DNA of 64,000 bases from an uncultured Acidimicrobiales bacterium. GTDB lineage: Bacteria; Actinomycetota; Acidimicrobiia; Acidimicrobiales; SHLQ01. The stretch lies in the NCBI GenBank assembly GCA_938041035.1, contig CALHYX010000010.1, positions 43,719-107,718 on the forward strand, given 5' to 3'. Below, one piece after another: positions 4,906 through 39,510 of the stretch. A model generated the notes under the pieces. The model was given only the letters and a program-made list of their open reading frames with translations, had not been told where the DNA came from and made no database searches. The translations under genes and the position numbers were made by a program. Within the stretch, counting starts at the first letter, position 1. Every line of letters begins with the position of its first letter.

Positions 4906-4993
4906 GTCGATCGCTCCGGCCCCGTATCCACCGCCGATTCATTTCCCGCATGGTGGGCAACCTCGGCGTCGGGCCAACTAGCATCGGAAGGCG

Positions 4994-6199: not shown

Positions 6200-6202
6200 T
6201 CC

Positions 6203-7048: not shown

Positions 7049-7123
7049 GCGCCGCTCACGCTGCCGGTGGGGGTGCCTGCAGTAGAGAAATCCGTGCGGC
7101 AGAGAAATCCCTGCGGTAGAGGG

Positions 7124-8308
7124 TCAGTGCAGCCGGGAGATGAGGTCGCCGCGCGAGCCGATTTCGAGGCCGCTGACCCCCACGAATTCGGCGAGTCGGT
7201 CGAGTTCGGCGCGCACCTCGGTAGCGACCTCGGCGGCGTCGATACCGGGTTCGCCATAGGCGCCGATCACGCGAAGAACGCCCGCGGCGCGGTCGGTCTT
7301 GAGATCGACGCGAGCCACCAGGTTTTCGCCCAGGAGGAACGGGAGTACGTAGTAGCCGTACCGGCGCTTGGCCTTGGGTACATAGATTTCGATGCGGTAC
7401 TCGAAGTTGAACAGCGCTTCGGCCCGCGGGCGGTTCCATACGACCGGGTCGAAGGGCGACAGGAGCGCCCGGGCCTTGACCCAGCGCGGGACTTTGGCGT
7501 CGGGACGCATGTAGCCGATGCGCTTCCAGCCTTCGATGTCGACCTCGATGAGTTGACCGTCCTCGACGAGCTCGGCGAGGCGGGCTTTCGCCGGTCTTTT
7601 CGGCAGCCGATAGTAGTCGACGAGGCATTCGGCGCTGCCCACCCCATGGGCCGTCGCCGAGCGTAGGAGAAGCTCTCGGTGCGCATCCTCTTCGGTCGGC
7701 GTGGGCTGATCGATGATCTCGGCGGGGATGATCCGATCGAGAAGGTCGAACTGCTTCTCGAATCCGGCGGTCCGGCGGATGCCGACCTCACCGATGCGAA
7801 ACAACCAATCGAGCGCCATTTGGCCGACGGATCGGCTGCCCCACCATTCACCGGAGCGAGGGCGGGGGTCGTCGAGTTCGTGGGCGTACATCGGACCGCG
7901 CTCGCGCACCTGCGCGAGCACGGAGGCGATGTAGGCGGGATCCTCACGGGCGAGGGTGACGTATCCCTTCCAGGTCTCGCCTGCTGCACTTCGCGCTCTT
8001 GCCCAGCGCAGCAGCGGTTCGTCGGCAACCGGCAGCAGCGATGCCTCGTGGGTCCACGCCTCGAACCACTCGTCGTCGCGGTAGGCGATCCGATCGAGCA
8101 GGTCGGGGTCGTACGGCCCGAGCCGGGAGAAGCCGGGCATGTACTGCGTACGGATGATGACCGGCACCGAATCGAGTTGCAGCAGGTTCAACCGCTTCAT
8201 CACCCGGCGCAGATGCCGGCGGTCGACCCGGCCCTTCGGCACCGCGTCGTTGAACCCCTGGGCGTTCAGGGCGAGTCGACGGGCCTGGGACTGTGTGAGC
8301 GACTCCAT
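7124..8308 (-). CDS. winged-helix DNA-binding protein, YcaQ/AlkZ-like (DUF1006) DNA glycosylase family
   Basis: The sequence from MESLTQSQARRLALNAQGF onward is the typical YcaQ-family N-terminus. The upstream 28 aa of the track ORF are probably not translated. Confidence 0.6.
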   Translation of the reverse strand: MESLTQSQARRLALNAQGFNDAVPKGRVDRRHLRRVMKRLNLLQLDSVPVIIRTQYMPGFSRLGPYDPDLLDRIAYRDDEWFEAWTHEASLLPVADEPLLRWARARSAAGETWKGYVTLAREDPAYIASVLAQVRERGPMYAHELDDPRPRSGEWWGSRSVGQMALDWLFRIGEVGIRRTAGFEKQFDLLDRIIPAEIIDQPTPTEEDAHRELLLRSATAHGVGSAECLVDYYRLPKRPAKARLAELVEDGQLIEVDIEGWKRIGYMRPDAKVPRWVKARALLSPFDPVVWNRPRAEALFNFEYRIEIYVPKAKRRYGYYVLPFLLGENLVARVDLKTDRAAGVLRVIGAYGEPGIDAAEVATEVRAELDRLAEFVGVSGLEIGSRGDLISRLH

Positions 8309-8391
8309 CGCGTCACCGTAGACGCGGTGGATGGTCGAACCGATGTGTGGTTGCCTCGACGGTACGGGGAACGCGATCGAGGGGAACGACA

Positions 8392-9177
8392 ATGACTGAC
8401 TCGGCGTCGAGTGACCGCTACGGCACCGCTGACGAGGAGGTCGACATCGAGCGGGTGCGGCTCGAGATGCTGGCGGCAGCCCGAGACCCGCGCACCATCG
8501 GCGTACTCGAGCGGCTCGACCTGCCCGCCGAGGCCCGGTGCTGGGAGATCGGCGCCGGTTCCGGGTCGGTGTCGACTTGGTTGGCCGGGCGGGTGGCGAC
8601 GGTGTTGTCCACCGACATCGACTTACAGTTCCACGCCGATATGCCGGCCAACGTCACCGTGCTGCGCCACGACGTCGAGAACGACGATCTGCCCGACGAG
8701 CGGTTCGACCTCATCCACGCCCGGGCCGTCATGCAGCACCTCCCCGAGCGCGAGTCCGTCATCGCGGCGTTGGTCTCACGGCTCGCACCGAAGGGGTGGT
8801 TGGTGCTCGAGGACAGTTCGTTCCTCGGGTTCGCTCAGCAGTCGGTGCCGGCCGCCTACGCCCCGATCCACGCGATTGTGAGCGCTGGGTCCCAGGAGGA
8901 GTGGCGCGACCCCGACTTCGGGCTTCAGTTGCTCGATCGGCTTCGGAACGCGGGCCTCACCGACCTCGACGTCGACGGCGACCTGTGGGCGATGCGGCCG
9001 GGTGAGCCCGGGGGTGAATGGTGGTTCCTGGCGCTCGAACGGGCGATTCCCCGTCTGGTCGAGTTCGGGTTGATCGATGCCGCCCAGGGTGAGCAGGCCA
9101 TGGCGGAGGTACGGGCGCCGGGATTCGTGATGTTGAGCCCGGTATCGATCGCGGCCTGGGGACGTCGAGCCGGCTGA
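8392..9177 (+). CDS. class I SAM-dependent methyltransferase
   Basis: Motif I EIGAGSGSVSTWLA and the acidic motif II are present. ATG 8392 has a GAGGGG ribosome-binding site 8 nt upstream. Confidence 0.65.
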   Translation: MTDSASSDRYGTADEEVDIERVRLEMLAAARDPRTIGVLERLDLPAEARCWEIGAGSGSVSTWLAGRVATVLSTDIDLQFHADMPANVTVLRHDVENDDLPDERFDLIHARAVMQHLPERESVIAALVSRLAPKGWLVLEDSSFLGFAQQSVPAAYAPIHAIVSAGSQEEWRDPDFGLQLLDRLRNAGLTDLDVDGDLWAMRPGEPGGEWWFLALERAIPRLVEFGLIDAAQGEQAMAEVRAPGFVMLSPVSIAAWGRRAG

Positions 9178-9196
9178 TCGCCCGGCGTTGGCGCGA

Positions 9197-9892
9197 TCAG
9201 CCCGATTCCGCCTGGTCGAAGTCGGCGTACGCCTGGTCCATGGCCGCCTGCAGCCGACGCCCGAACTCCTCGGTGCGCTCGGAGAGTTCGCGGCGGTTCA
9301 AACGACCTTCCGGGGGTGGGAGGGGTTCGCCGACCACGATGGCGATGGTGGTGCGGCGGGGTACCTTCGTGCCGCTCGGCAACGCCTCGCCACTTCCGGC
9401 AATGCCGACGGGCACGATGGTGGCGTCGGTCTTGCTGGCGAGCCAGATCGTGCCGTCGAAGAGCTCGCCGATCTGACGACCCGCCTGCCGGGTGCCCTCG
9501 GGAAACACGAGCAGCGGCTCGCCCCGATCGAGCACGAGGCGGGCTGCCCGGGTGGCTTCGCGGTCGGCGGTGCCCCGTTTCAGCGGGAACGCGCCGAGTG
9601 AGGAGATGTACCAGGCGAACGGTTTGAGCGAGAAGAGCGATTCCTTGGCCAGCACGCGCAGTCGACGCTCGCTCAGGGCGGCGACCAACGGGCTGTCGAG
9701 GTTGGAACGGTGGACCGGGGCCACGAGCAGTGGGCCGGGCAGGTTCAGCTTTTCCCGGCCGCGCACGGTGACCCTGAAGTACGGAAAGATCGCGCTGCGA
9801 ATGAACGATCGGGTCGCCCCGTGCACCCGCTCGGCCATGGCGCTGTCGCCCACGGCGAATGACCATTCGCGGAGATCGTCGTCGTCGGACAC
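9197..9892 (-). CDS. 1-acyl-sn-glycerol-3-phosphate acyltransferase (PlsC family)
   Basis: The HRSNLD-like H(X4)D box (PVHRSNLDSP) and the FPEGTR motif are present. Confidence 0.75.
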   Translation of the reverse strand: MSDDDDLREWSFAVGDSAMAERVHGATRSFIRSAIFPYFRVTVRGREKLNLPGPLLVAPVHRSNLDSPLVAALSERRLRVLAKESLFSLKPFAWYISSLGAFPLKRGTADREATRAARLVLDRGEPLLVFPEGTRQAGRQIGELFDGTIWLASKTDATIVPVGIAGSGEALPSGTKVPRRTTIAIVVGEPLPPPEGRLNRRELSERTEEFGRRLQAAMDQAYADFDQAESG

Positions 9893-9901
9893 GCCCGGAA
9901 T

Positions 9902-10834
9902 CTACCCGGTCGACGCCGCGGCGGTATCGGCGGGGAGCAGGCGCCATGGTTCGCGGGGGAGCTCGGCGGCGTCGAACCGTTCGAGCAGGGTGGCGACATC
10001 GGGAGTCTCCGTCGGCCCCGCCAGGCCCAGGCTCCGGGCCAGCCACGAGCGAACCTGGGTGGCGTCCTCGCCGAGCTCGGCCCGGTCGGCCAGGGTTACC
10101 GCCCCGTCGCGTTTCGCCAGCCGGTCTCCGGCGGCGTTGAGGACCAGCGGCACGTGGGCGTAGCTCGGAGGGGTCCGTTCGAACAGCTCGTAGAGCAGCA
10201 GGTGCCGAGGTGTCGACGACACGAGGTCGTCGCCCCGGACGACCTGTTCGACGCCGGCGGCGTCGTCGTCGATGACGACGGCGAGGTTGTAGGACGGCTC
10301 GCCGGACTTCCGTTCGATCACAAAGTCGTCGACCGTCCCGGTGTAGGGACCCGCGATCAGATCATCGAATGAAAAAGATCGGCCCTCCGCTCGGATGCGC
10401 AGGGCGGGGGTACGCCCGTCGCGCTCGCGTTCGCGTCGATCGGTGGCGGTGAGGCCTCGGCAGGTGCCGGGATAGAACCCGTCCGGGTTGAGCGGAGCGT
10501 TGGGGGCGGCGCCGGCCTCGCGGATCTCGCGTCGGGAGCAGTAGCAGGGGTAGGTCAAGCCGGCATCGCGCAGCGTCTCGACCGCTTCGGCATAGATGTC
10601 GAGCCGCCCGGATTGATGGACGACGGGTTCGTCCCAGTCGAGGCCGAGCGCCGAGAGGTCGGCGAGTTGGCTCTCGGCGTAGGCGGCCTTCGCCGCGACC
10701 GCGTCGAGGTCTTCGATGCGCATCAGGAATCGGGAGCCGGTCGAGCGGGCGAACAGCCACGCGACGAGGGCGGTGCGCAGGTTGCCGACGTGAAGGTCGC
10801 CGGTGGGGCTGGGCGCGTAGCGGCCGACGGGCAT
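9902..10834 (-). CDS. gluQ: tRNA glutamyl-Q(34) synthetase GluQRS
   Basis: The product (RYAPSPTGDLHVGNLRTALVAWLFAR...YPCYCSRREI...) is a class I GluRS catalytic-domain paralog lacking the anticodon-binding domain. The start is taken at internal MPVGRY; the track ORF extends further 5'. Confidence 0.75.
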   Translation of the reverse strand: MPVGRYAPSPTGDLHVGNLRTALVAWLFARSTGSRFLMRIEDLDAVAAKAAYAESQLADLSALGLDWDEPVVHQSGRLDIYAEAVETLRDAGLTYPCYCSRREIREAGAAPNAPLNPDGFYPGTCRGLTATDRRERERDGRTPALRIRAEGRSFSFDDLIAGPYTGTVDDFVIERKSGEPSYNLAVVIDDDAAGVEQVVRGDDLVSSTPRHLLLYELFERTPPSYAHVPLVLNAAGDRLAKRDGAVTLADRAELGEDATQVRSWLARSLGLAGPTETPDVATLLERFDAAELPREPWRLLPADTAAASTG

Positions 10835-10862
10835 GCGCCGACCGTACTCGTTGGTCGTTGAG

Positions 10863-12131
10863 CTACAGGGTTGCGGCGACGGCGCTGCCGACGAACTCGC
10901 CCTGGGCGAGATCGACGCGTGCCATCGTGAGGGCGTCGAGGTCGTCGGCATCGTCGATACCCACGGCGAGGGTGACGATGTCGAGCGCTCGGGCCACGGT
11001 CGCGACCGCCGCTACGAGCTGCTGGCGGGCCGGGTCGGTCGAGATGCCGCTCGTCAGGTTTGGCTGGAGGCGGAGTACGTCGGTCTCGAGGGAACCGAGA
11101 TCGGAGAGGGTGGCGCCGGCATCGAACACGGTGCTGAGCCGGACCGAGATACCCGCTTCTCGCATCGGGTCGAGCTGATCGGCGACGGCATCGATGTCGC
11201 TGCGTTCGCGGCCCGACAGTTCGAGCCCGATCGAGCCGGGGGTCACACCGTTTTCGGCGAGGATGCTGCGCATGTCCTCCGGTGCGCCGGAGACGCGAAG
11301 CACGGCGGCGGGAACCGGCAACCAGATGCGTTCGAACCGGGCCGCCTCTTCGCTGGCGGCGAGCCGGGCGAGGGCGCCGAGGGCGAGGTCGAGGGCATCG
11401 GCCATCGATGCCAGCCCGCCGGCGAACAGCGCCTGAGGACGCAGGCCGGTATCGACGAGCACTTCCGCGCTGCTGAGCCTGCTTGTCGCGGTCTCAAAGC
11501 GGGGGGCGAGGAGCCACTTGAGGTTCACGGGATCCGGCGCCCGGGCGGCGTCGATCGACTCTCGGATCTCGCCGTTGTCCACCGCGTAGGGGCGGATCGT
11601 CCAGCGGGCCTGGTCGAGGGCAAACTGGGCTCGCTGCAGGAGCTGACCCGGCGTCGATTGCGGACTCGCCACGGCGATGCCGATTCGGGTGCGGACGACG
11701 ACCTGAGCGCCACCGGCCTTCACCGTTTCGGAGAGACGGCGACCGATGCGCTGAGCGATGGTGTCGAGCACCTGGGGGTCGCTGGGTAGGGCGGTCAAGA
11801 TGATGCCGACGCGATCGTCGGCGACCGGGGCCACCAGATCGTCGTCGCGAAGAAGTTCGCTCACGGCGCTGGCGACGGCACCGCCGATGCCTTTGGCGGC
11901 CGCCTTGCCGAACTGATCGGCGATGCGGGGAGTGTCTTCGACCGCGATGAGGAAAAAGGCGACGTTGCCGCCCCCGGGTTTGTCGATCGCCTTGGCCAGA
12001 AATGCTTCGAGGTCGTTCGGTCCGGGCATGGAACTCATGCCGAGCAACGACTTGGCTATCTTCTGAAACGGATTCCCCAAAGATGTTCCCACCCTTGCGC
12101 TATCGACGCGACCCTTCGCGACCTTGAGCAA
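10863..12131 (-). CDS. degenerate GGDEF-EAL-like signalling protein (likely catalytically inactive)
   Basis: The C-terminal region LAVGIDDADDLDALTMARVDLAQGEF resembles EAL motifs, but the catalytic residues have diverged. The N-terminal GGDEF-like fold lacks the GGDEF signature. Confidence 0.4.
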   Translation of the reverse strand: MLKVAKGRVDSARVGTSLGNPFQKIAKSLLGMSSMPGPNDLEAFLAKAIDKPGGGNVAFFLIAVEDTPRIADQFGKAAAKGIGGAVASAVSELLRDDDLVAPVADDRVGIILTALPSDPQVLDTIAQRIGRRLSETVKAGGAQVVVRTRIGIAVASPQSTPGQLLQRAQFALDQARWTIRPYAVDNGEIRESIDAARAPDPVNLKWLLAPRFETATSRLSSAEVLVDTGLRPQALFAGGLASMADALDLALGALARLAASEEAARFERIWLPVPAAVLRVSGAPEDMRSILAENGVTPGSIGLELSGRERSDIDAVADQLDPMREAGISVRLSTVFDAGATLSDLGSLETDVLRLQPNLTSGISTDPARQQLVAAVATVARALDIVTLAVGIDDADDLDALTMARVDLAQGEFVGSAVAATL

Positions 12132-26835: not shown

Positions 26836-29613
26836 TCAGAGTCGGGTGATGTCGGTCAGCCTCACGATCGCCGCGCCCGCTTCTCGACTGGCGTCGAGGT
26901 CGACCTCACCGATGAGCCGCCACTCGTTGTTCTCGTCGGGATCCGAGAGAATCTGGGTCACGTTCCAAACCGTGGCGGCCTCGTCGATGATCGCGTTGCG
27001 CACCGATCGGGCATCGGCGTCGAGCAGGATTGCGTCGTAGCTTTCCCAATACGGCTCCATGGCCTCGCGCAGGTCGTCGGCCCGGTAGATGCCGTTCATC
27101 TCGGCCTGGTGTTCGGCGAGCCCCATGTAGGCCTTGCGGGCCAGCATCGTGACCCATCGGAACGTCTCGTTGCGCACCATCACCCGGAAGGCGCGGGCAT
27201 TCCGGGTGACGTCCGGGCGGTCGTCGTCGATTCCGGGCGGTCGCACCTCGGCGATGTCGACCTCGGGGTTGCGGATGCGCTCCCACTCGTCGAGCAGGCT
27301 TGAATCGACCTGGCGCACGACTTCGCCCAGCCATTCGGTGAGATCGATGACCTCGTCGGTCTTGGCGGCCTCCGGCACGTTCTGGACCATGGCCTTGTAG
27401 GCGTCGGAGAGATAGCGCAACACGGCTCCTTCGGAGCGCTTGAGCCCGTAGTGGTTGACGTATTCGCGGAAGGTCATCGCCTGTTCGTACAGGTCGCGGG
27501 CGATGGACTTCGGCGCGACGTTGTCCGACCCGACCCAGGGGTGGGCCGCTCGGAACGTGTCGAACGCCGCGTAGAGGAACGGCGCGAGCGGTTTGGGGTA
27601 GGTGACCTCGTCGAGGCGCTCCATGCGTTCCTCGTACTCGATGCCGCGCGACTTCATGTCGGCCACGAGGGCGTCTTTGGCTTTGGACACCTGGGCGTGC
27701 AGGATGACGCCGGGATTCTCGAGCACCGACTCGATGACGGAGAGCACGTCCAGCGCGGGATCACTCTCGGGACTGTTTTCATTCTCGGGACTTCCGCCCG
27801 AGCTCTCGAGCGGGTCCGGCGGGGCCGTTGATTCTGCATCCGCAGTGGCCGGTTCCGGTTCGTCGGCGATGGCCCCTGTTTCATTCTCGGGACTTCCGCC
27901 CGAGTTCGCTCGTTGGTCCGCAGTGGCCGGTTCCGGATGGTCGGCGGTGGCCCCTTCCGGTTCGTCTACGGCGGCCACGTTGGCGCCTCCAGCGAGCTCC
28001 GGCGGGAGTCCGGAGGATGAAAGAGCCTCCACGGCTTCGACCGCGAACAACGACAGCGGCTGGTGGAGGGCGAAGTCGGCCTGGAGGTCGATGGTGACCC
28101 GCACGCGGCGGCCCTGTTCGTCGGGTTCGTCGAGGTGCTCGACCACCCCGGCGTCGAGGAGTGAACGGTAGATGGCGATCGAGCGACGGATGTGGCCGCG
28201 CTGGCGCTTCCGGGTCTCGTGGTTGTCGGTGAGCAGGTGGCGCACGGCGGCGCAACCGTCGCCAGGCCGGTCGAGCACTTCGAGCATGAACTGGTGTCCG
28301 ACCTTGAAGTGCGACTGCAGCGGCTCCGGCTGTCCATCCATCATCTTGGTGAACGACTTCTCGTCCCAGTGCGAGTAGCCGCGTTCGGGCGGCTTCTTCT
28401 TGACCAGCTTCTTCCTTTTCTTCGGGTCGGTGGCGGCTTTGGCCTCGGCCACGAGGTTTTCGATGTTGTGCGCCGGTGCCTGGACCCAGACGTAGCCCTG
28501 GTCGTCGAAGCCGCGCCGGCCGGCCCGCCCCGCGATCTGTTGGAACTCGCGATTCTGGAGCGACCGGGTGCTCACGCCGTCGTATTTGCACAGCTGGGTG
28601 AACAACACGGTGCGGATCGGCACGTTGACGCCGACGCCGAGCGTGTCGGTGCCGGCGATGAGCTTCAGCAGGCCTTGTTGCGCGAGCTTCTCGACCAGCA
28701 GTCGGTACTTGGGGAGCAGACCGGCGTGGTGCACGCCAATGCCGTGCGACAGCCATCGACGAAGGTCCTTGCCGATGGGGCTGTCGAAGCGGAACCCGCC
28801 GATCGCCTCGTTGATCTCGGCCTTCTGGGGTTTGGTGAGCACGTCGAGACTGGTGAGTGCCTGCGCCGCCTCGGTTGCGGCGCGTTGGGTGAAGTGCACG
28901 ATGTACACGGGCGCCCGGTCGAGGTCGAGCAGCTCCTGGAGCGACTGGTGGATGGGTGTTTGGCGGTATTCAAACTCGAGCGGGACCGGGCGCTGGTCGC
29001 TCGACACCGTGACGGTGGGGATGCCGGTGCGATCGGTGAGATCGGCCTCCAACAGGTTGGTCGGGCCGAGCGTGGCCGACATCAGCAGAAACTGGGTGTG
29101 AGGGAGTTCGAGCAGCGGTACCTGCCAGGCCCAGCCGCGCTGCGGGTCGCCGTAGTAGTGGAACTCGTCCATGATCGCGACGTCCACGGGCGCGTCGGCG
29201 CCGTGGCGGAGGGCGGCGTTGGCGAGGATCTCTGCGGTGCAGGCGATGATCGGCGCGTCGGCGTTCACCGACGCGTCGCCGGTGATCATGCCGACGTTGT
29301 CGGAGCCGAAGCGGCGGCAGAGGGCGAAGAATTTCTCGCTCACCAGCGCCTTGATGGGCGCGGTGTACCAGCTGCGCTTACCGGCCGCGAGGGCGGCAAA
29401 GTGGGCGGCCTCGGCCACCAGTGACTTTCCCGACCCGGTCGGGGTGGCGAGGATGACGTTCGATCCGTCGAGCAGCTCGAGGATCGCCTCCTCCTGGTGG
29501 TCGTACAGCTCGATGCCCTGATCGGCGGCGTGGTCGATGAACCCGTCCAGGAGCGCTCCAGGCGTGGCCTCGTCGGGGAGGAACCGCAGCAGCGAGGGCT
29601 CGACGAGAGGCAT
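26836..29613 (-). CDS. DEAD/DEAH-box ATP-dependent helicase with C-terminal DUF3516-like domain
   Basis: Walker A ATPTGSGKS, the DEFH box (IMDEFHYY), SAT, and motif VI QIAGRAGRRG are present. A low-complexity P/E/S/A-rich linker containing an internal DNA duplication separates the helicase core from the C-terminal domain. Confidence 0.8.
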   Translation of the reverse strand: MPLVEPSLLRFLPDEATPGALLDGFIDHAADQGIELYDHQEEAILELLDGSNVILATPTGSGKSLVAEAAHFAALAAGKRSWYTAPIKALVSEKFFALCRRFGSDNVGMITGDASVNADAPIIACTAEILANAALRHGADAPVDVAIMDEFHYYGDPQRGWAWQVPLLELPHTQFLLMSATLGPTNLLEADLTDRTGIPTVTVSSDQRPVPLEFEYRQTPIHQSLQELLDLDRAPVYIVHFTQRAATEAAQALTSLDVLTKPQKAEINEAIGGFRFDSPIGKDLRRWLSHGIGVHHAGLLPKYRLLVEKLAQQGLLKLIAGTDTLGVGVNVPIRTVLFTQLCKYDGVSTRSLQNREFQQIAGRAGRRGFDDQGYVWVQAPAHNIENLVAEAKAATDPKKRKKLVKKKPPERGYSHWDEKSFTKMMDGQPEPLQSHFKVGHQFMLEVLDRPGDGCAAVRHLLTDNHETRKRQRGHIRRSIAIYRSLLDAGVVEHLDEPDEQGRRVRVTIDLQADFALHQPLSLFAVEAVEALSSSGLPPELAGGANVAAVDEPEGATADHPEPATADQRANSGGSPENETGAIADEPEPATADAESTAPPDPLESSGGSPENENSPESDPALDVLSVIESVLENPGVILHAQVSKAKDALVADMKSRGIEYEERMERLDEVTYPKPLAPFLYAAFDTFRAAHPWVGSDNVAPKSIARDLYEQAMTFREYVNHYGLKRSEGAVLRYLSDAYKAMVQNVPEAAKTDEVIDLTEWLGEVVRQVDSSLLDEWERIRNPEVDIAEVRPPGIDDDRPDVTRNARAFRVMVRNETFRWVTMLARKAYMGLAEHQAEMNGIYRADDLREAMEPYWESYDAILLDADARSVRNAIIDEAATVWNVTQILSDPDENNEWRLIGEVDLDASREAGAAIVRLTDITRL
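27761..27965. repeat. imperfect ~100-bp tandem duplication inside the helicase linker region
   Basis: gttttcattctcgggacttccgcccgag...gcagtggccggttccgg occurs twice, at about 27775-27876 and 27877-27962. This produces the repeated SGGSPENE...PEPATAD peptide. Confidence 0.75.
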
Positions 29614-29715
29614 CGGGCCACCCTAACGCCCGCGATTCCCCCCAGCTCCCGAGCCCCGTCCATCCACCCGGAGGGCGCGGGTTCCGGCGGGACGGCGAAA
29701 GCTACCCTGGATCGC

Positions 29716-31227
29716 ATGAGATCGTACGGGGCGCTCATCGGGCTGCTGGCGTTGCTCGCCGGTGCCTGTACTTCCTCGGCACCGACGGACACGGCTGGCG
29801 CGGACACTTCGGCACCCGCCGATACGACGGTCTCGGCCCAAGAGCTCGACCCGACCAATGGCGGCGCTGATGACGGCCACCCGGCGTCCGAGCGCGCCGA
29901 TTCTCCTGACCCCCTCATGGCTCAGCTGGGGTTCGACCGCTGCTCGCGCAGCACCGGGCTCGTTTCCGCGGACCCGTCGTTCTATCGCGACGAGCCGGTG
30001 CATCTCGGCGAGCAACCCCCGGAAGCGTTGGTCGACTGGGCGAAGCGCCAACCGGGTTTCGAGGAGATCTGGATCGACGGCGACCACAACAACTGGTTTG
30101 TCCTGGGTTTCTCCGAAGGCGATATCACGCGGCTGCAGTCAGCTGTCGAAGCCGAGTTCCCGGCAACGGGTGCCGCGGTTGCCTCGGTGTCGACGACCAA
30201 TGCGTATCTGGACCGGTTGAGCGCCGAGGTAATCGAGCTGCTCAACGCCGCGGGCGAGCAGTCGTACTCGGTCGGCGGCAGCGTCGCTTCAGGGATCGTG
30301 TCGGTCGACATCGGCGTGCTCGACGTCGAGACGGTCCAAGCGCTCGAACCGGTGGCGGGCGAGCCGATCTGCCTGACCGGAGCTGATCCGAGGACGGTGA
30401 ACCCCGACCGACCACAGGCCCTGACGGGGGATGGGTGGCGTTTGCTCGGCACGGTCGAAAACGGCCGCGAGTCACCCAACCTCTACACCAGCCAGGACGA
30501 TCTCGACCAAATGAACTGGGCGACCTCGACCTCCGAGGTCTCGGTGGACTTCGAGACAGAGGTGGCTATCCGTTTCGGCCTCTCGCTCCCGTGCACATCG
30601 CAACAACTGCGGTTCACCGACGTGGTGGTGCAAGTCGATCCCGCCGTGGTGTACGCCGAGACGGTCCTGGTGGGCCCGCCGCCGGCGGACTGTGATACGG
30701 CGCTGCGAATTCGCTCGTACGTCGTGGCCGTATCGCGCGACCGGCTGCCCGCTGGGCCGTTCTTTCTGCAGCTCTATCGAACCAAACCTCGGGCGGGTTC
30801 CTACGGCCAGCGGATCCTCGTGGACACCGACCTGACCGTGCCCGGCGCACTAGCGACCCCGGGTGACATCAAACCGAACCCGGACAAAGTCGCTCGCGAC
30901 GAGCGACGGGCCGCCGGAGCTGAGCCCAATGCGGGGCCGGTCATCGCGGCCGGCGGCTACATGGAGCCGGGACCCGGCCACTACCGAATTGGCCTCGAAT
31001 GCAGATTCGACCGGATCGGCCCGATCAACAACATCGTGTGGCGGGCGACGACGCCGAACCTGAGTGCGAACCCGCCGCCGGAGTGGACGCAAGCCGCCGG
31101 TTCCGGCGACTTCTTTCGCGCCGAAATCGAGCTTGCGGCGGGATCACCGCCCAGCCTCACGGTGACCGCAGGCGACCACAGCGAACGCTACGAACCGGCT
31201 CCGGCAGGCACGACCGCCAACTGCTAA
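29716..31227 (+). CDS. hypothetical lipoprotein
   Basis: ATG 29716 gives MRSYGALIGLLALLAGAC, a signal peptide plus lipobox (LAGAC). This is followed by a Thr/Ala/Asp-rich linker and a 450-aa domain of unknown function. Confidence 0.55.
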   Translation: MRSYGALIGLLALLAGACTSSAPTDTAGADTSAPADTTVSAQELDPTNGGADDGHPASERADSPDPLMAQLGFDRCSRSTGLVSADPSFYRDEPVHLGEQPPEALVDWAKRQPGFEEIWIDGDHNNWFVLGFSEGDITRLQSAVEAEFPATGAAVASVSTTNAYLDRLSAEVIELLNAAGEQSYSVGGSVASGIVSVDIGVLDVETVQALEPVAGEPICLTGADPRTVNPDRPQALTGDGWRLLGTVENGRESPNLYTSQDDLDQMNWATSTSEVSVDFETEVAIRFGLSLPCTSQQLRFTDVVVQVDPAVVYAETVLVGPPPADCDTALRIRSYVVAVSRDRLPAGPFFLQLYRTKPRAGSYGQRILVDTDLTVPGALATPGDIKPNPDKVARDERRAAGAEPNAGPVIAAGGYMEPGPGHYRIGLECRFDRIGPINNIVWRATTPNLSANPPPEWTQAAGSGDFFRAEIELAAGSPPSLTVTAGDHSERYEPAPAGTTANC

Positions 31228-31235
31228 TCACCGTC

Positions 31236-31272
31236 CGCGAACCATCTGGTGCCTGGCACCAGATGGTTCGCG
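31236..31272. repeat. perfect 18+18 palindrome cgcgaaccatctggtgcc-t-ggcaccagatggttcgcg (copy 1 of dispersed element; probable terminator hairpin)
   Basis: Starts 9 nt after the lipoprotein stop. Related copies occur at 31335-31366 and 42251-42285. Confidence 0.8.
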
Positions 31273-31334: not shown

Positions 31335-31366
31335 CTGGTGCCTGGCACCAGATGGTTCGCGGTGGG
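31335..31366. repeat. copy 2 of CTGGTGCCWGGCACCAG palindromic element (left arm truncated)
   Basis: gctggtgcctggcaccagatggttcgcggtgggg shares the right arm and 3' flank with copies 1 and 3. Confidence 0.75.
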
Positions 31367-31497: not shown

Positions 31498-32199
31498 TTG
31501 TCCCAAAGGCCCGGGCACCCACGAGGTTGGCCGGGCCCTTCGGACGAGCGGCTTCTTCGAAAGGACCTGGACTCGGTGAGCGAGTTCGTCGACGCGATTC
31601 TCAGCTTCCCCACCGTGATCTTCACGGTCGCGCTCGCGGTGTCGTTGTCCTTCTTCGCCATCACCACGCTCCTCGGCGCCGGCATGGACGCCGACTTCGA
31701 CTTCGACGCCGACATCGACGGTGACCTCGGTGCGAGCCTGCTGTCATCGATCGGACTGGCCGGCGTCCCGATAGCGGTGAGTGCCACCCTCATCTCCCTG
31801 TTTGCCTGGTTCGCCAGCGTCGTCATGACCGAACTGCTCGACGACGGCGGCGATGGCATCGTTGCCGTCTACGCGGTCATCGTGATCGTGCTCGCCCTGA
31901 TCGTGGGAGTCGTGGCGGCCGGGGTCATCGGCCGACCGGTCGGCCGGGCCTTCAACGCCACCCAGAACCGCCGGCGCGGCGACCTGCTCGGCCGGGCCTG
32001 CACCATCACCACGCTGAAGGTCACCGACTCGTTCGGCCAGGCCGAGGTGCCCGACCCCGACGGCGGCACCCTGCTCGTGCAGGTCCGCTCGCTCAAACCC
32101 ACCACCCTTACCGCCGGCGACCCCGCGCTGATCTTCGAACGCGATTCCGACAGCGACGCCTATTACGTCACCCCCCAGGATCCGGAGCTCACCGCCTAA
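31498..32199 (+). CDS. NfeD-like membrane protein (short YuaF/YqiJ type) partner of flotillin
   Basis: TTG start with a GGAGAGG ribosome-binding site. Two TM regions are followed by a C-terminal OB-fold-like segment (GRACTITTLKVTDSFGQAEVPDPDGGTLLVQVRS). The gene sits immediately upstream of an SPFH gene, which is the canonical NfeD position. Confidence 0.6.
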   Translation: MSQRPGHPRGWPGPSDERLLRKDLDSVSEFVDAILSFPTVIFTVALAVSLSFFAITTLLGAGMDADFDFDADIDGDLGASLLSSIGLAGVPIAVSATLISLFAWFASVVMTELLDDGGDGIVAVYAVIVIVLALIVGVVAAGVIGRPVGRAFNATQNRRRGDLLGRACTITTLKVTDSFGQAEVPDPDGGTLLVQVRSLKPTTLTAGDPALIFERDSDSDAYYVTPQDPELTA

Positions 32200-32315
32200 C
32201 CGCACCGCCTAACCACACCGGCCAGTTCGCCCCGCATCTGAACCAACGTTGCCCCTTCCCCGTCACAACCAGCAGTCCCTGAGTGGCCATCACCGGCCAA
32301 AGAAAGCGATTCCCC

Positions 32316-34352
32316 ATGACGATCCTGTCTGTTGTCCTCGTCTTGATAGTCATCCTCGTCGCCGTGGCCATGCTGGTCGCGCTGATGTTCAGCCGATTGT
32401 TCCGCAAGGTCCCCCAGGGCAAAGCGCTCGTCGTGAGTACGATGAACAAGGTCGTGGTGTCGTTCACCGGCCAGATCGTGCTGCCCGTCATCCACAAGGC
32501 CGAGATCATGGACACCTCGGTCAAGACGATCGAGATCGACCGGCGCGGCGCGGAGGGCCTGATCTGTCAGGACAACATCCGGGCCGACATCAAGGTGAAC
32601 TTCTTCGTGCGGGTCAACAACGCCGAGGAGGACGTCATCAAGGTTGCCCAGGCCATCGGCGTCGACCGGGCCAGCCAGCAGGAGACGCTCGAAGAGCTGT
32701 TCACCGCCAAGTTCTCCGAGGCGCTCAAGACCGTGGGTAAGCGGCTCGACTTCATCGACCTGTACACCGAACGCCGCCGTTTCCGCGACGAGATCATCGA
32801 GGTCATCGGGACCGACCTCAACGGCTACGTGCTCGAAGACGCCGCCATCGACTACCTCGAGCAGACACCGCTGATGCAGCTCGACGACACCAACATCCTC
32901 GACGCCCAGGGCATCCGCAAGATCACCGAGCTGACCGCCACCGAACACGTGGCCACCAACGTGGCGAGCCGCGAAGAGGAAAAGCAGATCACCGCCAAGG
33001 ACGTCGAGACCCGGGAAGCGGTGCTCGAACTGCATCGCCAGCAGGCCGACGCCGAAGCCCGCCAGGCTCGCGAGATCGCCACCATGCAGGCCCGCGAACA
33101 GGCCGAAACCATGAAGGTGCAGGCCGAGGAGCGGCTGCGGGCCGAGACCGCCCGGCTCACCATGGAGCAAGATGTCGGCGTGCAGCAGGAGAACCTGCAG
33201 CGCGAGGTCGAGGTCGCCGAGAAGAATCGCCAGCGCATCATCGCCATCGAAGAGGAACGGGTGAAGAAGGCCCGCGAACTCGAGGAGATCTCCCGCGAAC
33301 TCGAAACCACCGGCGCCCAGAAGAGTCTGGAATCCGAGCGGGCGGCCGTCGCCGAGATCGTGCGCAATCGCACGGCCGTCGACAAGACCGTCGCCGAGGA
33401 GGAGGAAGCGATCGCCACCCTGCGCGTGGTCGAGGAGGCCACCCGTAACCGCGACGCCACCGTGATCGCCGCCGAGGCCGAGGCCGAGGGTGCGTTCGTG
33501 AAGGACATCAAGGCCGCCGAGGCCGCCGAAAAGGCCGCCCAGCATCGCGCCACCGAACGGGTCACCGTGGCCAAGGCCGATCTCGAAGCAAGCGACCTCG
33601 ACGCCAAGGCGATGGCTCGCCTGGCCGAGGGTGCCCAGGCCGAAGCGGCCGCTTCGGGTCTCGCCGAGGTGCAGGTGCGCGAGGCCGACGCCATCGCCAT
33701 CGAAAAGGTTGGCCTCGCCGAGGTGCGGGTCAAAGAAGCCGATGCAGGAGCCACCCAGAAGGAAGGCGCCGCCGAAGCGTCGGTGGTGCGCGAGATGGGC
33801 CTCGCCGAGGCCGAGTCGGCCGAAGCCAAACTGCGGGGCGAGGCAGCCGGTCTCACCGACAAGGCCGCGGCCATGCGCGAGCTCGAAGGGGTGGGCCAGG
33901 AGTTCGAGGAATTCACCCGCCGGCTCGAAGCCCAGAAAGAGGTCGACCTCGCCAAGGTTGGCGCCCAGGTCGGCATTGCCAACGCCCAGGCCGACGCCCT
34001 CAAGGCCGGTCTCGAGAGTGCGGACATCGACATCGTCGGTGGGTCCGACATCTTCGTCGACCGTCTCGTCGGCGCGGTGGCGGGCGGCAAGTCCGTCGAT
34101 GCCTTCGTCGAGAATTCCGGCACCACCAACAAGGTGTTCGGTAAGTATCTCGACGGCGATGGCGACCTCGTCGCCGACCTCACCGAGCTCGCCGCCGGAG
34201 TGGGCGGCAACGGCGTGCGCGACCTCACCATCTCGGCGTTCCTCGCCCAGATGATGCGGTCGTCGAGCGGCGAGAACGCCGGCAAGCTCAACAACATCAT
34301 CGAAGCGGTTGCCCGAGAAGGCATCGGCGACCTGCCGATCGGCGAGCTGTAA
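32316..34352 (+). CDS. flotillin-like SPFH/band-7 protein (YqiK/FloT family)
   Basis: An N-terminal TM helix is followed by the SPFH domain (GKALVVSTMNKVVVSFTGQIVLPVIHKAEIMDTSVKTIEID...) and a long EA-rich coiled-coil with flotillin-type AEAEA repeats. The start may alternatively be GTG 32283. Confidence 0.8.
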   Translation: MTILSVVLVLIVILVAVAMLVALMFSRLFRKVPQGKALVVSTMNKVVVSFTGQIVLPVIHKAEIMDTSVKTIEIDRRGAEGLICQDNIRADIKVNFFVRVNNAEEDVIKVAQAIGVDRASQQETLEELFTAKFSEALKTVGKRLDFIDLYTERRRFRDEIIEVIGTDLNGYVLEDAAIDYLEQTPLMQLDDTNILDAQGIRKITELTATEHVATNVASREEEKQITAKDVETREAVLELHRQQADAEARQAREIATMQAREQAETMKVQAEERLRAETARLTMEQDVGVQQENLQREVEVAEKNRQRIIAIEEERVKKARELEEISRELETTGAQKSLESERAAVAEIVRNRTAVDKTVAEEEEAIATLRVVEEATRNRDATVIAAEAEAEGAFVKDIKAAEAAEKAAQHRATERVTVAKADLEASDLDAKAMARLAEGAQAEAAASGLAEVQVREADAIAIEKVGLAEVRVKEADAGATQKEGAAEASVVREMGLAEAESAEAKLRGEAAGLTDKAAAMRELEGVGQEFEEFTRRLEAQKEVDLAKVGAQVGIANAQADALKAGLESADIDIVGGSDIFVDRLVGAVAGGKSVDAFVENSGTTNKVFGKYLDGDGDLVADLTELAAGVGGNGVRDLTISAFLAQMMRSSSGENAGKLNNIIEAVAREGIGDLPIGEL

Positions 34353-34366
34353 GGCCGGTTCGGTCG

Positions 34367-37300
34367 TGACCGATACCGAGACACCAAGCGATCAGGTGGT
34401 CGACACCGCCGACGCGGCCGGCGTGACCGACGATGCCGTCGGCGCGGGCACCTATGACCTGCTCCGCGCTCGCCTCGTCGAGCACGCCGACGAGTTGGGT
34501 CGGCGCGCCAATCAGCTCAACCTCGACCGCCTCGAAACGTTCGGTACCAGCCGGTTCGAGTTGGTCGGCAGCGAGCGGATCCGCACGGAGAACAACTGTG
34601 TGTCGCGCGACATCGTCGCCGTCGGCGACCAGATGTTGTTCGGCTACAACGTGTTCATCGGCCTGCGGACCGAGACGACGATCGACGATGTGCTCAGCCT
34701 GCATCGGCTCGAACGCACGGGTGGCGCCGACGCCGACGATGGCGGCGCCCCTGCGGCCTACGCCCTTTCCCCGCTCTCCGAGGCGAGTGAAAGCGAGGCC
34801 ACCGCCTGGCTGCACGACCCGGGCTTCCTCAATGACTTCCGCGAGCTCACGACCTACTACAAGGACTACAAACTTCTGCAGCTGCGCCGTTCCGGCGGCC
34901 GGCTGCTCGCCGTGTTCCAGATCGGCAAGTCGATCGACGACATCCGGGTGTTTCGCTGGGACGTGAGCCCCGATGGGGTGGCGAGTTACCGCGACAACCG
35001 GGGCGAGCGGGATCACGATTACCCGCCTCAGTTTGGTTTCACCTGGCAGTCGGTCACCCGGGAACATCACGTGGGTGGACGCAACCCGCACGTGAACCTC
35101 GTCGACAAGGTGTTCCTCGATCCGCGGGGCGGCAAGCTCGAAATCCGGCTCGAGGACAACACCGAGACCGGGTTGCTCGTATTGAGCGAGCCGGTGGAGA
35201 ACCCCGACCAATCGGTCGACGACACCTCGATGGCCTTCGCGGTGATCGGCGACCTGGTGCTGGTGCGGGTGCGCCCGTATCTCGAACAGGACGACCGCTA
35301 CTACGTCGTGAACCTGTTCAACCGGTCGGCCCTACGCGTCGACGCCATCGGCCAGTCGTGCCAGATCCTGCCCGAGGACCACGGGGTGATCTTTCCCGGC
35401 GGCTACTACCTGCGCGAGGGCGACACCAAGGTGTTCGACCTCGACACGACCGGTATGGAATTCAAGGTCGAGATCCGGTCGCCGAACGGCGAGGACGTGC
35501 TGTACGCGTTCCACGAACGCGATGGCGGCCGCACGATTCTGCTCAGCTACAACCTGATCCGACGCCATGTCGCCGCGCCGATCAACTGCCACGGCTACAG
35601 CCTGTTCGAGGACGGCACCCTGGTGGTGTTCCGCGACAGCGGCGAGCCCACTCGGGTGCACCCGATGCAGATCTGGGCCACCCCGTTCGTGAGCGATGAG
35701 TTTCAGGCCCGCCAGCCGCTCGGCGACGGCCTGCTCGAGCGCATCGGCAACGCCGAGCTGGTTCGAGGCGTCAGCGAGGCGTTGAACATTCGGCGCCTCG
35801 TCGCCGACGTCGAACCCTCGGGCGCCGTTTTCGAAGACCTCGCGACCAGCACCGTGCGGGTGCTCGATGCCCACACGTGGCTGGTCGACGATGGCGCCGG
35901 CGATCTCGCAGCACCGCTGCGCGAGATTCGGGCGACGTCGGAGCTCATCATCGATGAGTTCGACAAGGCCGAGGCGCTCAAGGCCACCGCCATCGAGGTC
36001 GCCGAGAGCGCCACGAACGACATCGATGAGCTGGTCGATGGCATCCGGCAGAACCGACCGGCCACCACCCAGGCATTCGTCGATGCGTTGCAGCAACTCC
36101 GCCGCCAGCAGGGCCACCTCCTCACGATTCGCGACACCCGGTACATCGATCACGGCCGGCTCGACGCCCTCGATCAGCAGGTGCAGGAATCGTTCGACGA
36201 TCTCTCGGCGAACGCGGTCGACTTCCTCGCGGCCGACACCGCCTTTGCGGGCTTTCACACCGACGTCGAACAGCTGACCGCGACCATCGAGGCGACCGAG
36301 AAGGTCACCGAGGTGGAGCCGCACCTCGAAACGCTGGACGACATCGGGTCGGGCCTCGACCTGCTCGCCGAGGTCGTGGGCGGTCTCGAGATCGACGACG
36401 CCACCGTCCGCACGGGCATCTTCGAACGGGTATCCGGGGTGATGGGGGCGTTGAACCGCACGCGGGCCGTGGCCGAAAACCACCGATCGCGCCTGCGCGA
36501 TTCCGAGAGCAGCGCGGCCTTCGGCGTGGAGTTCGGCCTGTTCTCGCAGTCGGTCACCGCAGAATTGAGCCGCTCGACCTCGCCGGAGAAGGCCGATGCC
36601 GCCCTCGGCACACTGCTCGTGCAGCTCGAGAACCTCGAGAGTCGCTTCGGCGATTCCGACGACTACCTCGACCAGATCGCCACAAAACGCGAGGACGTCT
36701 ACGAGGCGTTCTCCTCGCGCAAGCAAACCCTGATCGACGACCGGCAGAGCTCGGCTCGTCGACTCGTCGACGCCGCCGATCGCATCCTCACCAGCGTCAA
36801 TCGACGCGTCGAGGGGTTCGAGTCGGCCGACGAGATCAACGCCTTCTTCGTGAGCGACCCGCTCGTGGCCAAGGTGCGCTCGATCGCCGGTGACCTCCGC
36901 GACCTCGACGAGCAGGTACGCGCCGACGAGATGCTACGCAACCTCGATACCGCCAAGGAAGAGGCCGCCCGATCGCTGCGCGACCGCACCGACATCTTCG
37001 AGGACGGTGGCCAGGTCATCCGCCTCGGCCGGCACCGGTTCAGCGTCGACAGCCAACGGCTCGAACTCACCACTGCCGCGATCGATGGTCACCTCAACGT
37101 GGTGATCACCGGAACCGACTTCCGGGAGGAGGTTCGTGCGGACCACTACCCCGAGATCGACCTCGACGAGCTGCGCCCGTTCTGGGACCAGACGCTGGTG
37201 TCCGAGCGACCGGACTTCAGCCGTATCGAGTACCTCGCCACCACGATCCTCGCCGGCGCCGCCGACGGAACGGGGCCGGTGACGTTCGCCGACCTGCGAG

Positions 37301-39510
37301 CGGCCGCCGGGAGCCCGCAGCAACTCGAAACCCTGGTCCGGTCAATCGCCGAGCAGCGGGTCGAAGAGGGCTACGACCGCGGGGTCCACGATCACGATGT
37401 GGCGTTGCTGCTCGGCGTTCTGGTCTCGCGCTGGGATGAGATTGGCCTGCTTCGCTACGAGCCCGATGCTCGAGCGCTGGCTCAGATCTTCTGGGCCCAC
37501 GGGCTCGACGATGAGATCGCCCGCGACCTCCTCGCCCGCGGTGTGAGCCTGGGCCGGTTGCGTTCGACGTTCGCCAGGTCGCCGGCCATCGCCGACTTCG
37601 TCGCCGACCTCCAGGCACGCATCGAGGCCTTCGTCGCCGACCGTCCCACGGTGGGCGACGGTGTCGACCCGGCCGCGACCGCCGGGTATCTGTTCGAGGA
37701 GCTGGCTGAGGAACCGCTCGCCTTCGTGGTCAGCAGCGCGGCGTCGGACCTACGCGACGCGCTCCGCCTGCACCACGACACCGTCGGCATCGATGCAACC
37801 GTGGCCGAACTGGACGACCTGGTCGACCGGCATCGGCTCCTGACCGCCTGGTTCAACGCCTTCGCCGAGGCGGAGCGCCCCGAAGCACTCGCCTACGTGC
37901 CCGAAGCGGTTGCGCTCGTCGTGGCCGACGGGCTTCCGCACCAGGCCGGAGCGGTGGACCTCACCTGCGAGGTGTCGAATCTGCTCAGCCAGCACGGACG
38001 CATCTCGGACCAGACGCTGCGGTTTCGCTACGACGAGCTCATGGCCGCGGGCGACGCCTACCGCCGCACGGTTGTGCCCGGGTTCCGCGAGTACCAGACC
38101 ACTCGACACCGGCTGTTGGCTGAGGCTCGCGACCGGCTGCGCCTCGACGAGTTCACCCCGAAGGTGATGAGCGCCTTCGTGCGCAATCAGCTGATCGACC
38201 AGGTCTATCTGCCGCTGATCGGCGACAACCTCGCCAAACAGCTCGGCACGGTCGACGGCGGTCGCACCGACCAGATGGGGCTCCTGCTGCTCATCTCGCC
38301 CCCGGGTTACGGCAAGACCACGCTCATGGAATACGTGGCCAACCGGCTCGGCATGGTTTTCGTCAAGGTGAACGGGCCGGCGCTCGGCCACGGCGTCGAT
38401 TCGCTCGACCCGACCGAGGCGCCGAACGCTACGGCCGCCCAGGAGGTCGACAAGATCAACTTCGCCCTCGAGATGGGTAGCAACGTCTTGCTGTACCTCG
38501 ACGACATCCAGCACACGAACCCCGAGTTGCTGCAGAAGTTCATCTCGATGTCGGATGCTCAGCGCCGAATGGAGGGAGTCTGGAACGGGCGGACCCGCAC
38601 CTATGACCTGCGGGGCAAGCGGTTTGCGGTCTGCATGGCCGGCAACCCCTACACCGAGTCCGGCGATCGCTTCCAGATCCCCGACATGCTCGCCAACCGC
38701 GCCGACACCTACAACCTGGGCGATGTGTTGACCGGCAACGACGGTCTGTTCGCGCTCAGTTATCTGGAGAACTCGCTCACGTCGAACCCGGCGCTCGCGG
38801 CGCTCACGACACGCGATCAGGCCGACACGCTGAAGCTGATCGGCATGGCCCGGGGCGACAGCGTGTCGCCCGACGACCTGAGCCACCCGTATTCGGCGGT
38901 CGAGATCGACGAACTGGTCGCGACCTTCACCCGGCTGATCCGGGTGCAGGAGATCCTGCTGGCGGTCAACCAGACCTACATTTCGTCGGCCTCTCAGGAG
39001 GACGAGTTCCGTACGGAACCTCGCTTCCAGCTCCAGGGTTCGTACCGCAACATGAACCGGTTGGCCGAGAAGGTTCTGCCGGTGATGAGCCCCGAGGAGA
39101 TCGAGGCGCTCGTCGACGACCACTACTCGGGCGAGGCGCAGACCCTGACGACGGGAGCTGAGGCGAACCTGTTGAAGTTGGCCGAGCTGCGCGGCGTGAT
39201 GACCGATGAGCAAACCGAGCGCTGGGACGAGATCCGGGCGGCGTATCAGCGGGTCAAGTTGATGGGCGGCTCCGAGGACGACCCGATGGTTCGCGTCGCC
39301 GGAGCGGTCAGCGGTATCTCGGACCAGCTCCGGTCGATGGCGCAGCGCAGCGGACCGGATGCGGTCGACGTGCTGGCCCGCTTCGATGAGACGCTCCGCC
39401 TGCTCACCGACCGGGCCGAGCGCCGCCGCACCGCAGCGGCACCCAAGCAGCCGAGCCCGCGACCAACCCGGCGATCCACGCTGGCCCCGCCGCCACCCCC
39501 ACCCGAATAG
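34367..39510 (+). CDS. giant (~1715 aa) protein with single AAA_5 (MoxR/midasin-type) ATPase module near C-terminal third and a ~1250-aa N-terminal region with no motifs I can assign
   Basis: Walker A LLLISPPGYGKTTLMEY at about aa 1310, Walker B VLLYLDDIQ, sensor/arginine region CMAGNPYTESGDRFQIPDMLANRADTY. There is only a 14-nt gap after the flotillin stop, so the gene is presumably co-transcribed with NfeD and flotillin. The GTG start at 34367 has AAGG 11 nt upstream. Confidence 0.7.

Follow-up and report, generated by a model that had tools for sequence, protein, structure and literature searches.

A 64,000-nucleotide (nt) stretch from an uncultured Acidimicrobiales bacterium (GenBank assembly GCA_938041035.1, contig CALHYX010000010.1, positions 43,719 to 107,718; hereafter the window, numbered from its first letter) carries three genes in a row on the + strand, which are predicted to encode an NfeD-like membrane protein, a flotillin and a very large ATPase of the AAA+ class, here called the giant. 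An earlier reading of the letters alone, without database searches (the sequence-only reading), had picked out this row as one unit; here we describe its proteins, its conservation, its relation to known systems and its possible function. The genes, with lengths in amino acids (aa), are as follows.

31576-32199, + strand: gene 1, 207 aa, predicted YqiJ/YuaF-type short NfeD-like membrane protein; the longest open reading frame (ORF) begins at TTG 31498
32316-34352, + strand: gene 2, 678 aa, predicted YqiK-type flotillin
34366-39510, + strand: gene 3 (the giant), 1,714-aa ATPase, publicly named 'DNA repair ATPase'

The three ORFs (31498/31576-32199, 32283/32316-34352 and 34309/34366-39510) are real. 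In this genome of 66% GC, their coding status is backed by the bias and periodicity of GC at third codon positions, and the arrangement in one + strand row was borne out at the coordinates first proposed. Identical public proteins begin at GTG 31576 (207 aa), ATG 32316 (678 aa) and GTG 34366 (1,714 aa). Because orthologues of gene 1 start to align at residue 27 of the TTG 31498 reading, this gene probably begins at GTG 31576, 26 codons further in, and the TTG start of the sequence-only reading is not favoured. Its spacing of about 14 nt between flotillin and giant was right, as the stop of gene 2 (34352) and the start codon of the giant are 13 nt apart; genes 1 and 2 are separated by 116 nt. 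That the giant could be a frameshift or assembly artefact, made of several fused genes, was ruled out by the existence of > 4,700 full-length homologues of ~1,600-1,900 aa with the same set of Pfam domains.

The three encoded proteins

The giant had been described as a protein of unknown architecture, with ~1250 N-terminal residues that hold no assignable motif. This did not survive a Pfam search. DUF3686 (PF12458) covers aa 43-503 (E 3e-181), DUF7902 (PF25472) covers aa 626-708 (36241-36489; E 2.6e-26), and an AAA/AAA_5 match spans aa 1307-1430, so that a predicted beta-propeller is followed by helical bundles and an AAA+ module. Two AlphaFold (AF2) models, built on 38 homologues and with predicted local distance difference test (pLDDT) values of 76 and 83, divide the protein into the following parts, to which a helix at aa 29-59 and a small beta unit around aa 900-922 are to be added.

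34558-35679, + strand: aa 65-438, all-beta, the core of DUF3686, predicted beta-propeller; pLDDT ~85-90
35731-36996, + strand: aa 456-877, long helices of 20-58 residues (coiled coil or helical bundles), with DUF7902
37162-37923, + strand: aa 933-1186, helical domain; the least conserved structured part, 40% identity
38251-38745, + strand: aa 1296-1460, AAA+ core with Walker A K1317, Walker B D1379-D1380, sensor-1 N1427 and R1445
38746-39345, + strand: aa 1461-1660, lid and C-terminal helical domain, with an invariant QGSYRNM at aa 1557-1563
39346-39507, + strand: aa 1661-1714, Pro/Ala-rich tail, not conserved, 10% identity

Foldseek matched the beta domain to propellers (WD40, clathrin terminal domain, prolyl-oligopeptidase) with modest scores, and aa 65-438 are accordingly described here as a predicted beta-propeller. 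Searched against 1.84 billion representative proteins, this domain returned 712 clusters; the full-length ones all had 1,550-2,036 aa and carried it N-terminally, which confines the propeller to giant-type architectures. Neither a membrane domain of Pfam nor a long hydrophobic stretch was noticed in the giant. A second, degenerate AAA module was also considered and is not visible in either AlphaFold model.

The ATPase motifs quoted in the sequence-only reading are all present: Walker A (SPPGYGKTT, aa 1311-1319, 38296-38322), Walker B (LLYLDDIQ, aa 1375-1382, 38488-38511), CMAGNPYTESG at aa 1423 and NRAD at aa 1444-1447. Between the Walker B and sensor-1 strands the AAA+ core carries a beta-hairpin, and the pattern NPxxExG...P...R is present; the module has an AAA_5-type core and is closest to MoxR/midasin-type ATPases. 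Across 29 giants from several phyla, identity was 83% in the AAA+ core, 55% in the propeller and 40-48% in the helical parts. Walker A, the two Asp residues of Walker B, the sensor-1 Asn, the Arg of NRAD and QGSYRNM, which may represent the sensor-2 region, were invariant in this set. Intact, invariant motifs in a core of such identity lead us to read the giant, on sequence grounds, as an active enzyme under strong constraint. Its Walker B has the form hhhhDD in place of the usual hhhhDE, and both Asp residues are the same in all 29 sequences.

The gene 2 product begins with a hydrophobic anchor, which is followed by an SPFH/Band_7 domain, a long coiled coil rich in Glu and Ala, and a C-terminal region. 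At full length it had no Pfam or NCBIfam match at E values up to 10; Pfam Flot (PF15975) matched neither the full-length protein nor its C-terminal 200 aa at the same threshold, and a phmmer search of PDB sequences returned coiled-coil noise only. When the coiled coil was cut away and the N-terminal 247 aa were used alone, Band_7 (PF01145) was found at aa 12-258 (in the GTG 32283 reading) with E 5e-10 and 40 bits against a cut-off of 23.6. The full-length match is probably missed because of the compositional bias of the Glu/Ala-rich coiled coil. BLASTP aligned the protein with E. coli YqiK, than which it is ~125 aa longer, over 461 aa (28% identity, E 4e-32), and public names of its homologues include flotillin family, SPFH and YqiK. 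These matches support the earlier assignment as a YqiK/FloT-type flotillin, more precisely as the YqiK type. A precomputed Pfam domain is likewise lacking in most of the 120 homologues listed, so that domain annotation seems to overlook this flotillin subfamily systematically.

The gene 1 product contains three hydrophobic segments, the first of which is followed by a loop rich in Asp, and a C-terminal domain with the motif KVTxxFGQAEV. In Pfam and NCBIfam scans the full-length protein matched nothing, even at E values up to 10, and the window protein has no match to Pfam NfeD (PF01957), YqiJ_N (PF21001) or YqiJ_OB (PF07290). Among 20 orthologues, four matched YqiJ_N weakly (best E 1.5e-4, under the cut-off), and YqiJ_OB was weakly matched by the orthologue at locus L036 (E 0.004). 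A profile of these 20 orthologues had no match among PDB sequences and aligned with E. coli YqiJ over 133 columns (hhalign probability 93%, E 3.4e-7); a K(V/L)TxxFGQ motif in the C-terminal domain is common to the orthologues and YqiJ. As in 25 related loci, the next gene downstream in the window encodes an SPFH protein. The proposed NfeD-like identity was thereby upheld and narrowed, and we assign gene 1, from profile similarity and gene position, to the YqiJ/YuaF-type short NfeD-like proteins.

Some further features of the gene 1 family were seen. The loop after the first hydrophobic segment (protein aa 31-50) is a DxDxD run of alternating Asp residues that varies in length and exceeds 60 residues in some orthologues; binding of cations or polyamines by this loop is conceivable. 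The Pseudomonas trio is preceded by a glutathionylspermidine synthase gene. Three Lentzea loci (L015, L016, L032) carry additional paralogous YqiJ-like copies upstream of the operon.

Conservation of the trio and related systems

Linkage was determined in 32 loci from a scan of one genome per species, which came from Acidimicrobiales, Streptomyces, Lentzea, Actinocorallia, Bailinhaonella, Acidobacteriota, several Gammaproteobacteria, Bradymonadia, a delta-proteobacterial metagenome-assembled genome (MAG) and Rufibacter. The giants closest to that of the window were from Acidimicrobiales (77-79% identity). Upstream DNA was readable in 31 loci (L007 has none), and in 29 of them a flotillin gene lay directly upstream of the giant, in Actinomycetota, Acidobacteriota, Gammaproteobacteria, Bradymonadia and Bacteroidota alike; a YqiJ-like gene stood upstream of the flotillin in 25 of these loci. 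The upstream DNA of L009 amounts to 1.3 kb and holds an unrelated ORF. All-against-all clustering of the neighbouring ORFs returned the trio as the only genes common to the loci.

Spacing and divergence told the same story. The distance from flotillin stop to giant start was between -4 and ~90 nt in most loci and fell outside this range in three of the 27 measured (L022, L029, L031; the longest ORF was used); at L036, on a 3.08-Mb ENA contig, the stop and start codons overlap by one base. The distance matrices of flotillin and giant correlated with r 0.95, a value reached in none of 2,000 permutations. Trios also occur on the Proteus mirabilis chromosome, on plasmid pQBR103 of P. fluorescens SBW25 and on linear plasmids of Streptomyces. 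Collectively, linkage, spacing and parallel divergence indicate that the NfeD-like gene, the flotillin gene and the giant genuinely form a conserved unit, as the sequence-only reading had proposed for the window, and that their linkage is kept in related genomes and well beyond, across several phyla.

Two loci depart from the common pattern. In Rufibacter hautae (L031), two small membrane-protein genes with weak DUF2207_C and DUF3592 matches lie between flotillin and giant (4304-5775), the sole case in which both genes are present and not adjacent. The delta-proteobacterial MAG (L027, giant at 5971-11532) is the sole locus with ample upstream DNA yet no detectable flotillin or YqiJ-like neighbour; its upstream ORFs have no family match except for DUF2939 on the opposite strand.

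The giant of the window is 52-54% identical to the copies of Acidobacteriota, about as close as to those of Actinomycetota outside the Acidimicrobiales (49-51%; 49% for Streptomyces). This pattern departs from the species tree and suggests horizontal transfer of all three genes together. Copies of the giant are found on large plasmids, namely pQBR103, the Streptomyces linear plasmids, and plasmids of Deinococcus and Hymenobacter. A distant blastn search at the DNA level found no giant in 5,426 complete E. coli genomes.

The sequence-only reading had held the row to be the best candidate in the window for an undescribed multi-gene system. This is not the case. An operon of YqiJ/YuaF (three transmembrane segments), band-7-flotillin and a beta-propeller-coiled-coil-AAA+ protein was described computationally by Ravi et al. 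(2024, mSystems; preprint 2020; PMC11237479), both in a form linked to PspA and CesT/Tir and as 'related abbreviated operons' without PspA that are 'more widely distributed'; the type example, in a supplementary table, is the Dokdonia donghaensis neighbourhood of PspA ANH61663.1. The window has the same three proteins with the same order and architectures, and represents the abbreviated form: whereas the full form includes a CesT/Tir-PspA dyad, tblastn found no PspA, CesT/Tir, DUF2170 or TelA gene in the 64-kb window. The paper assigns the ATPase neither to Pfam families nor to an AAA+ clade and shows no structure of it.

Our match to the operon of Ravi et al. rests on the architecture and on the Rufibacter locus, not on the Dokdonia protein sequence. 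In Rufibacter (L031), a member of the Bacteroidota, the order is CesT_Tir_1 (E 4e-41), PspA, YqiJ-like, flotillin and giant. On pQBR103 (L034, NC_009444.1, 85112-97641) the trio closes a block of nine genes on one strand, which encode PspA, a rhomboid protease, DUF2491, DUF350, DUF1190, a member of the glutathionylspermidine synthase family, a hypothetical protein, an SPFH protein and the giant. These two arrangements with PspA place the giant of the window in the system of Ravi et al., in its abbreviated form. The hypothetical protein of the pQBR103 block is YqiJ-like by position, and a gene of the MvaT/MvaU family follows the block on the opposite strand. In gammaproteobacterial loci, TelA-like and DUF2170 genes stand ahead of the trio. 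The arrangements of Rufibacter, pQBR103 and the gammaproteobacterial loci all have their counterparts in Ravi et al.

Other systems resemble parts of the trio. The yqiJ-yqiK genes of E. coli, and yuaF-floT of B. subtilis, are a homologous pair in the same order as genes 1 and 2 (the comparison was made with E. coli); in contrast to the window, the E. coli pair has no third gene. By their AAA+ module, the MoxR-family ATPases NorQ, CbbQ and RavA, as well as midasin/Rea1, are close relatives of the giant. The MoxR type is a stand-alone protein of ~300 aa with a VWA/MIDAS partner nearby, whereas the giant has 1,714 aa and its only conserved neighbours are the YqiJ-like protein and the flotillin. 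Coupling of an SPFH scaffold to an AAA+ ATPase at the membrane, as we propose below for the trio, is known from HflK/C-FtsH (PMC13220708, PMC12005517). Unlike FtsH, the giant has no protease domain, showed no membrane anchor and carries a MoxR-like AAA+ module. FtsH is a membrane-anchored AAA protease of the classical clade that is not encoded with hflKC in E. coli; further pairs of SPFH and AAA+ proteins are prohibitin with m-AAA and erlin with p97.

Surroundings of the trio in the window

The sequence-only reading had also noted repeated palindromic elements and an AT-rich island ahead of the unit and a two-component system behind it, and had taken the former to suggest dedicated regulation. 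Upstream of gene 1 lies a lipoprotein gene (29497-31227) without family match, followed by two elements.

31236-31272, no strand: perfect palindrome with 18-nt arms and a 1-nt spacer, 9 nt past the stop of the lipoprotein gene
31335-31361, no strand: 27-nt direct repeat, a copy of the right part of the palindrome, 89 nt downstream

One perfect palindrome is thus present, unique at full length within the window, and its repeat is a partial direct copy rather than a further palindrome. It is probably the terminator of the lipoprotein gene. The AT-rich island shrank to a dip to 47.5% GC in just the 80 nt that precede gene 1, and the stretch as a whole resembles a usual terminator with a promoter region behind it; in a promoter and terminator scan of this region, sites were no more frequent than in shuffled sequence. 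Histidine kinase and response regulator genes do adjoin the giant (39552-41598), but on the - strand and convergent with it, and they are not conserved near the trio elsewhere; a regulatory link between the two was dropped. Since neither palindromes nor two-component system are conserved with the module, the proposal of dedicated regulation is not supported. The flanking genes in the window, as at L036, are ordinary chromosomal genes. Two genes upstream, at 26836-29613 on the - strand, lies a gene for a 925-aa DEAD-box helicase with a C-terminal DUF3516 (E 1e-175), which is unlinked in other loci.

Proposed function and rival explanations

Trio conservation, protein identities, domain architecture and intact catalytic motifs make a flotillin-organised, ATP-driven machine, as suggested in the sequence-only reading, the most reasonable reading of the locus. 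Physical contact between the proteins, their assembly into a ring in the case of the giant, the substrate and the role in the cell are what we infer beyond these observations. On balance, we favour a flotillin-docked, ATP-driven remodeller that acts in membrane or envelope stress, and consider this somewhat better than an even guess. The YqiJ-type protein and the YqiK-type flotillin would form an SPFH scaffold at the cytoplasmic face of the membrane. The giant, a large soluble protein with propeller, long arms of helices and a single AAA+ module by which it probably assembles into a ring, would dock on this flotillin/NfeD assembly via its propeller or its arms, and ATP hydrolysis would remodel the scaffold, by assembling, disassembling or opening it, or would act on proteins held within it. 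Such remodelling may be part of a membrane or envelope stress response, a reading prompted by the recurrent association with the PspA system and by the SPFH/AAA+ precedent of HflK/C-FtsH.

Several points weigh against a remodeller of this kind. The predicted template modelling (pTM) scores of the two giant models were 0.41 and 0.46, which means that the domains are confident and their relative arrangement is not. That the flotillin and the C-terminal domain of YqiJ lie on the cytoplasmic side is a deduction from the positive charges after the anchors and from knowledge of YqiK/YuaF. Gene linkage speaks for shared function, not for contact, and no flotillin gene was seen upstream of the giant in the 1.3 kb available at L009 or within 6 kb at L027. 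E. coli carries yqiJ-yqiK without a giant, hence the flotillin pair does not need it. The VWA/MIDAS partner that is usual for MoxR-type ATPases was not found at the trio, and literature searches retrieved no experimental study of any of its members.

A more specific version of the remodeller would make the giant a single-module bacterial counterpart of mechanoenzymes of the midasin/Vps4 type: a homo-oligomeric, MoxR-like ring, each subunit with a long helical arm and a propeller, that opens or dismantles the flotillin/NfeD cage and whose grip on the cage would include PspA where this is present. We put this forward tentatively and think it unlikely to hold. More speculatively, the propeller of the giant is followed by a long helical region, an order for which the fold search gave weak matches to IFT-A, clathrin heavy chain and Vps11, and which may point to a coat-like role in membrane shaping.

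The alternative nearest to the favoured remodeller, on the model of HflK/C-FtsH, lets the flotillin cage corral or gate the giant, which would unfold, extract or mature other membrane or membrane-proximal proteins. It differs in the substrate alone (clients instead of the scaffold), and we regard it as a serious, if rather doubtful, possibility: no protease or effector domain is fused to the giant or conserved nearby, and no candidate client gene is conserved. It is also conceivable that one stress induces the giant and the flotillin pair together, and that the giant, physically independent of the pair, works at another place in the cytoplasm. The giant without adjacent flotillin at L027 and the E. 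coli pair without giant would fit this. However, several phyla share the gene order and the tight spacing, flotillin and giant diverge in step (r 0.95), and adjacency of this kind is, by inference, usual for subunits of one complex, which makes independent action decidedly improbable.

A further option of the sequence-only reading, abortive infection or defence, taken here as an anti-phage module in which a membrane sensor or scaffold would trigger the giant as NTPase effector, has in its favour that large ATPases are common in defence systems, that some copies are plasmid-borne and that the similarity pattern off the species tree suggests horizontal transfer. Yet PADLOC (PADLOC-DB 2.0) gave P-loop noise only for the giant (IetA, E 0.004; mad8, E 0.007) and nothing for genes 1 and 2, and no nuclease, protease, TIR, Sir2 or pore-forming effector was found. 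The recurrent neighbours are PspA, CesT and polyamine genes, not defence islands, and the flanks in the window and at L036 are ordinary; moreover, defence genes evolve fast, which fits poorly with the 83% identity of the ATPase core between phyla. We consider a defence role very unlikely. Still harder to credit is a function in DNA repair, for which there are names (Pfam calls DUF3686 'ATPase involved in DNA repair', NCBI the protein 'DNA repair ATPase') and weak P-loop matches to RuvB (E ~5e-5, under the family cut-offs). The RuvB matches span no more than ~45 residues near Walker A, and their 22 bits fall far short of the cut-offs (282-299); no DNA-binding or nuclease domain was found in the giant, its conserved partners are two membrane proteins, and our literature searches found no paper that ties the family to DNA repair. 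Searches on DUF3686/PF12458, on 'DNA repair ATPase' with flotillin, on flotillin with MoxR and on pQBR103 with PspA likewise found nothing relevant.

The existence and the architecture of the operon were thus already known from the computational description of Ravi et al., and the window adds one more instance, not a new kind of system. New are the identification of the ATPase by DUF3686 and DUF7902, its placement near MoxR/midasin, the quantified linkage and motif conservation, and the finding that the label 'DNA repair ATPase' is without support in domains, neighbours or literature; this label steers attention away from the family. The trio is carried by tractable hosts: Proteus mirabilis on its chromosome, P. 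fluorescens SBW25 on pQBR103, and Streptomyces. For the assembly, opening and recycling of flotillins in bacteria, a widespread, conserved ATPase that is encoded nearly always after one flotillin subtype is an obvious candidate. Should the ring indeed open or dismantle the cage, the giant would be the first machine by which bacteria turn over flotillin microdomains at the expense of ATP.

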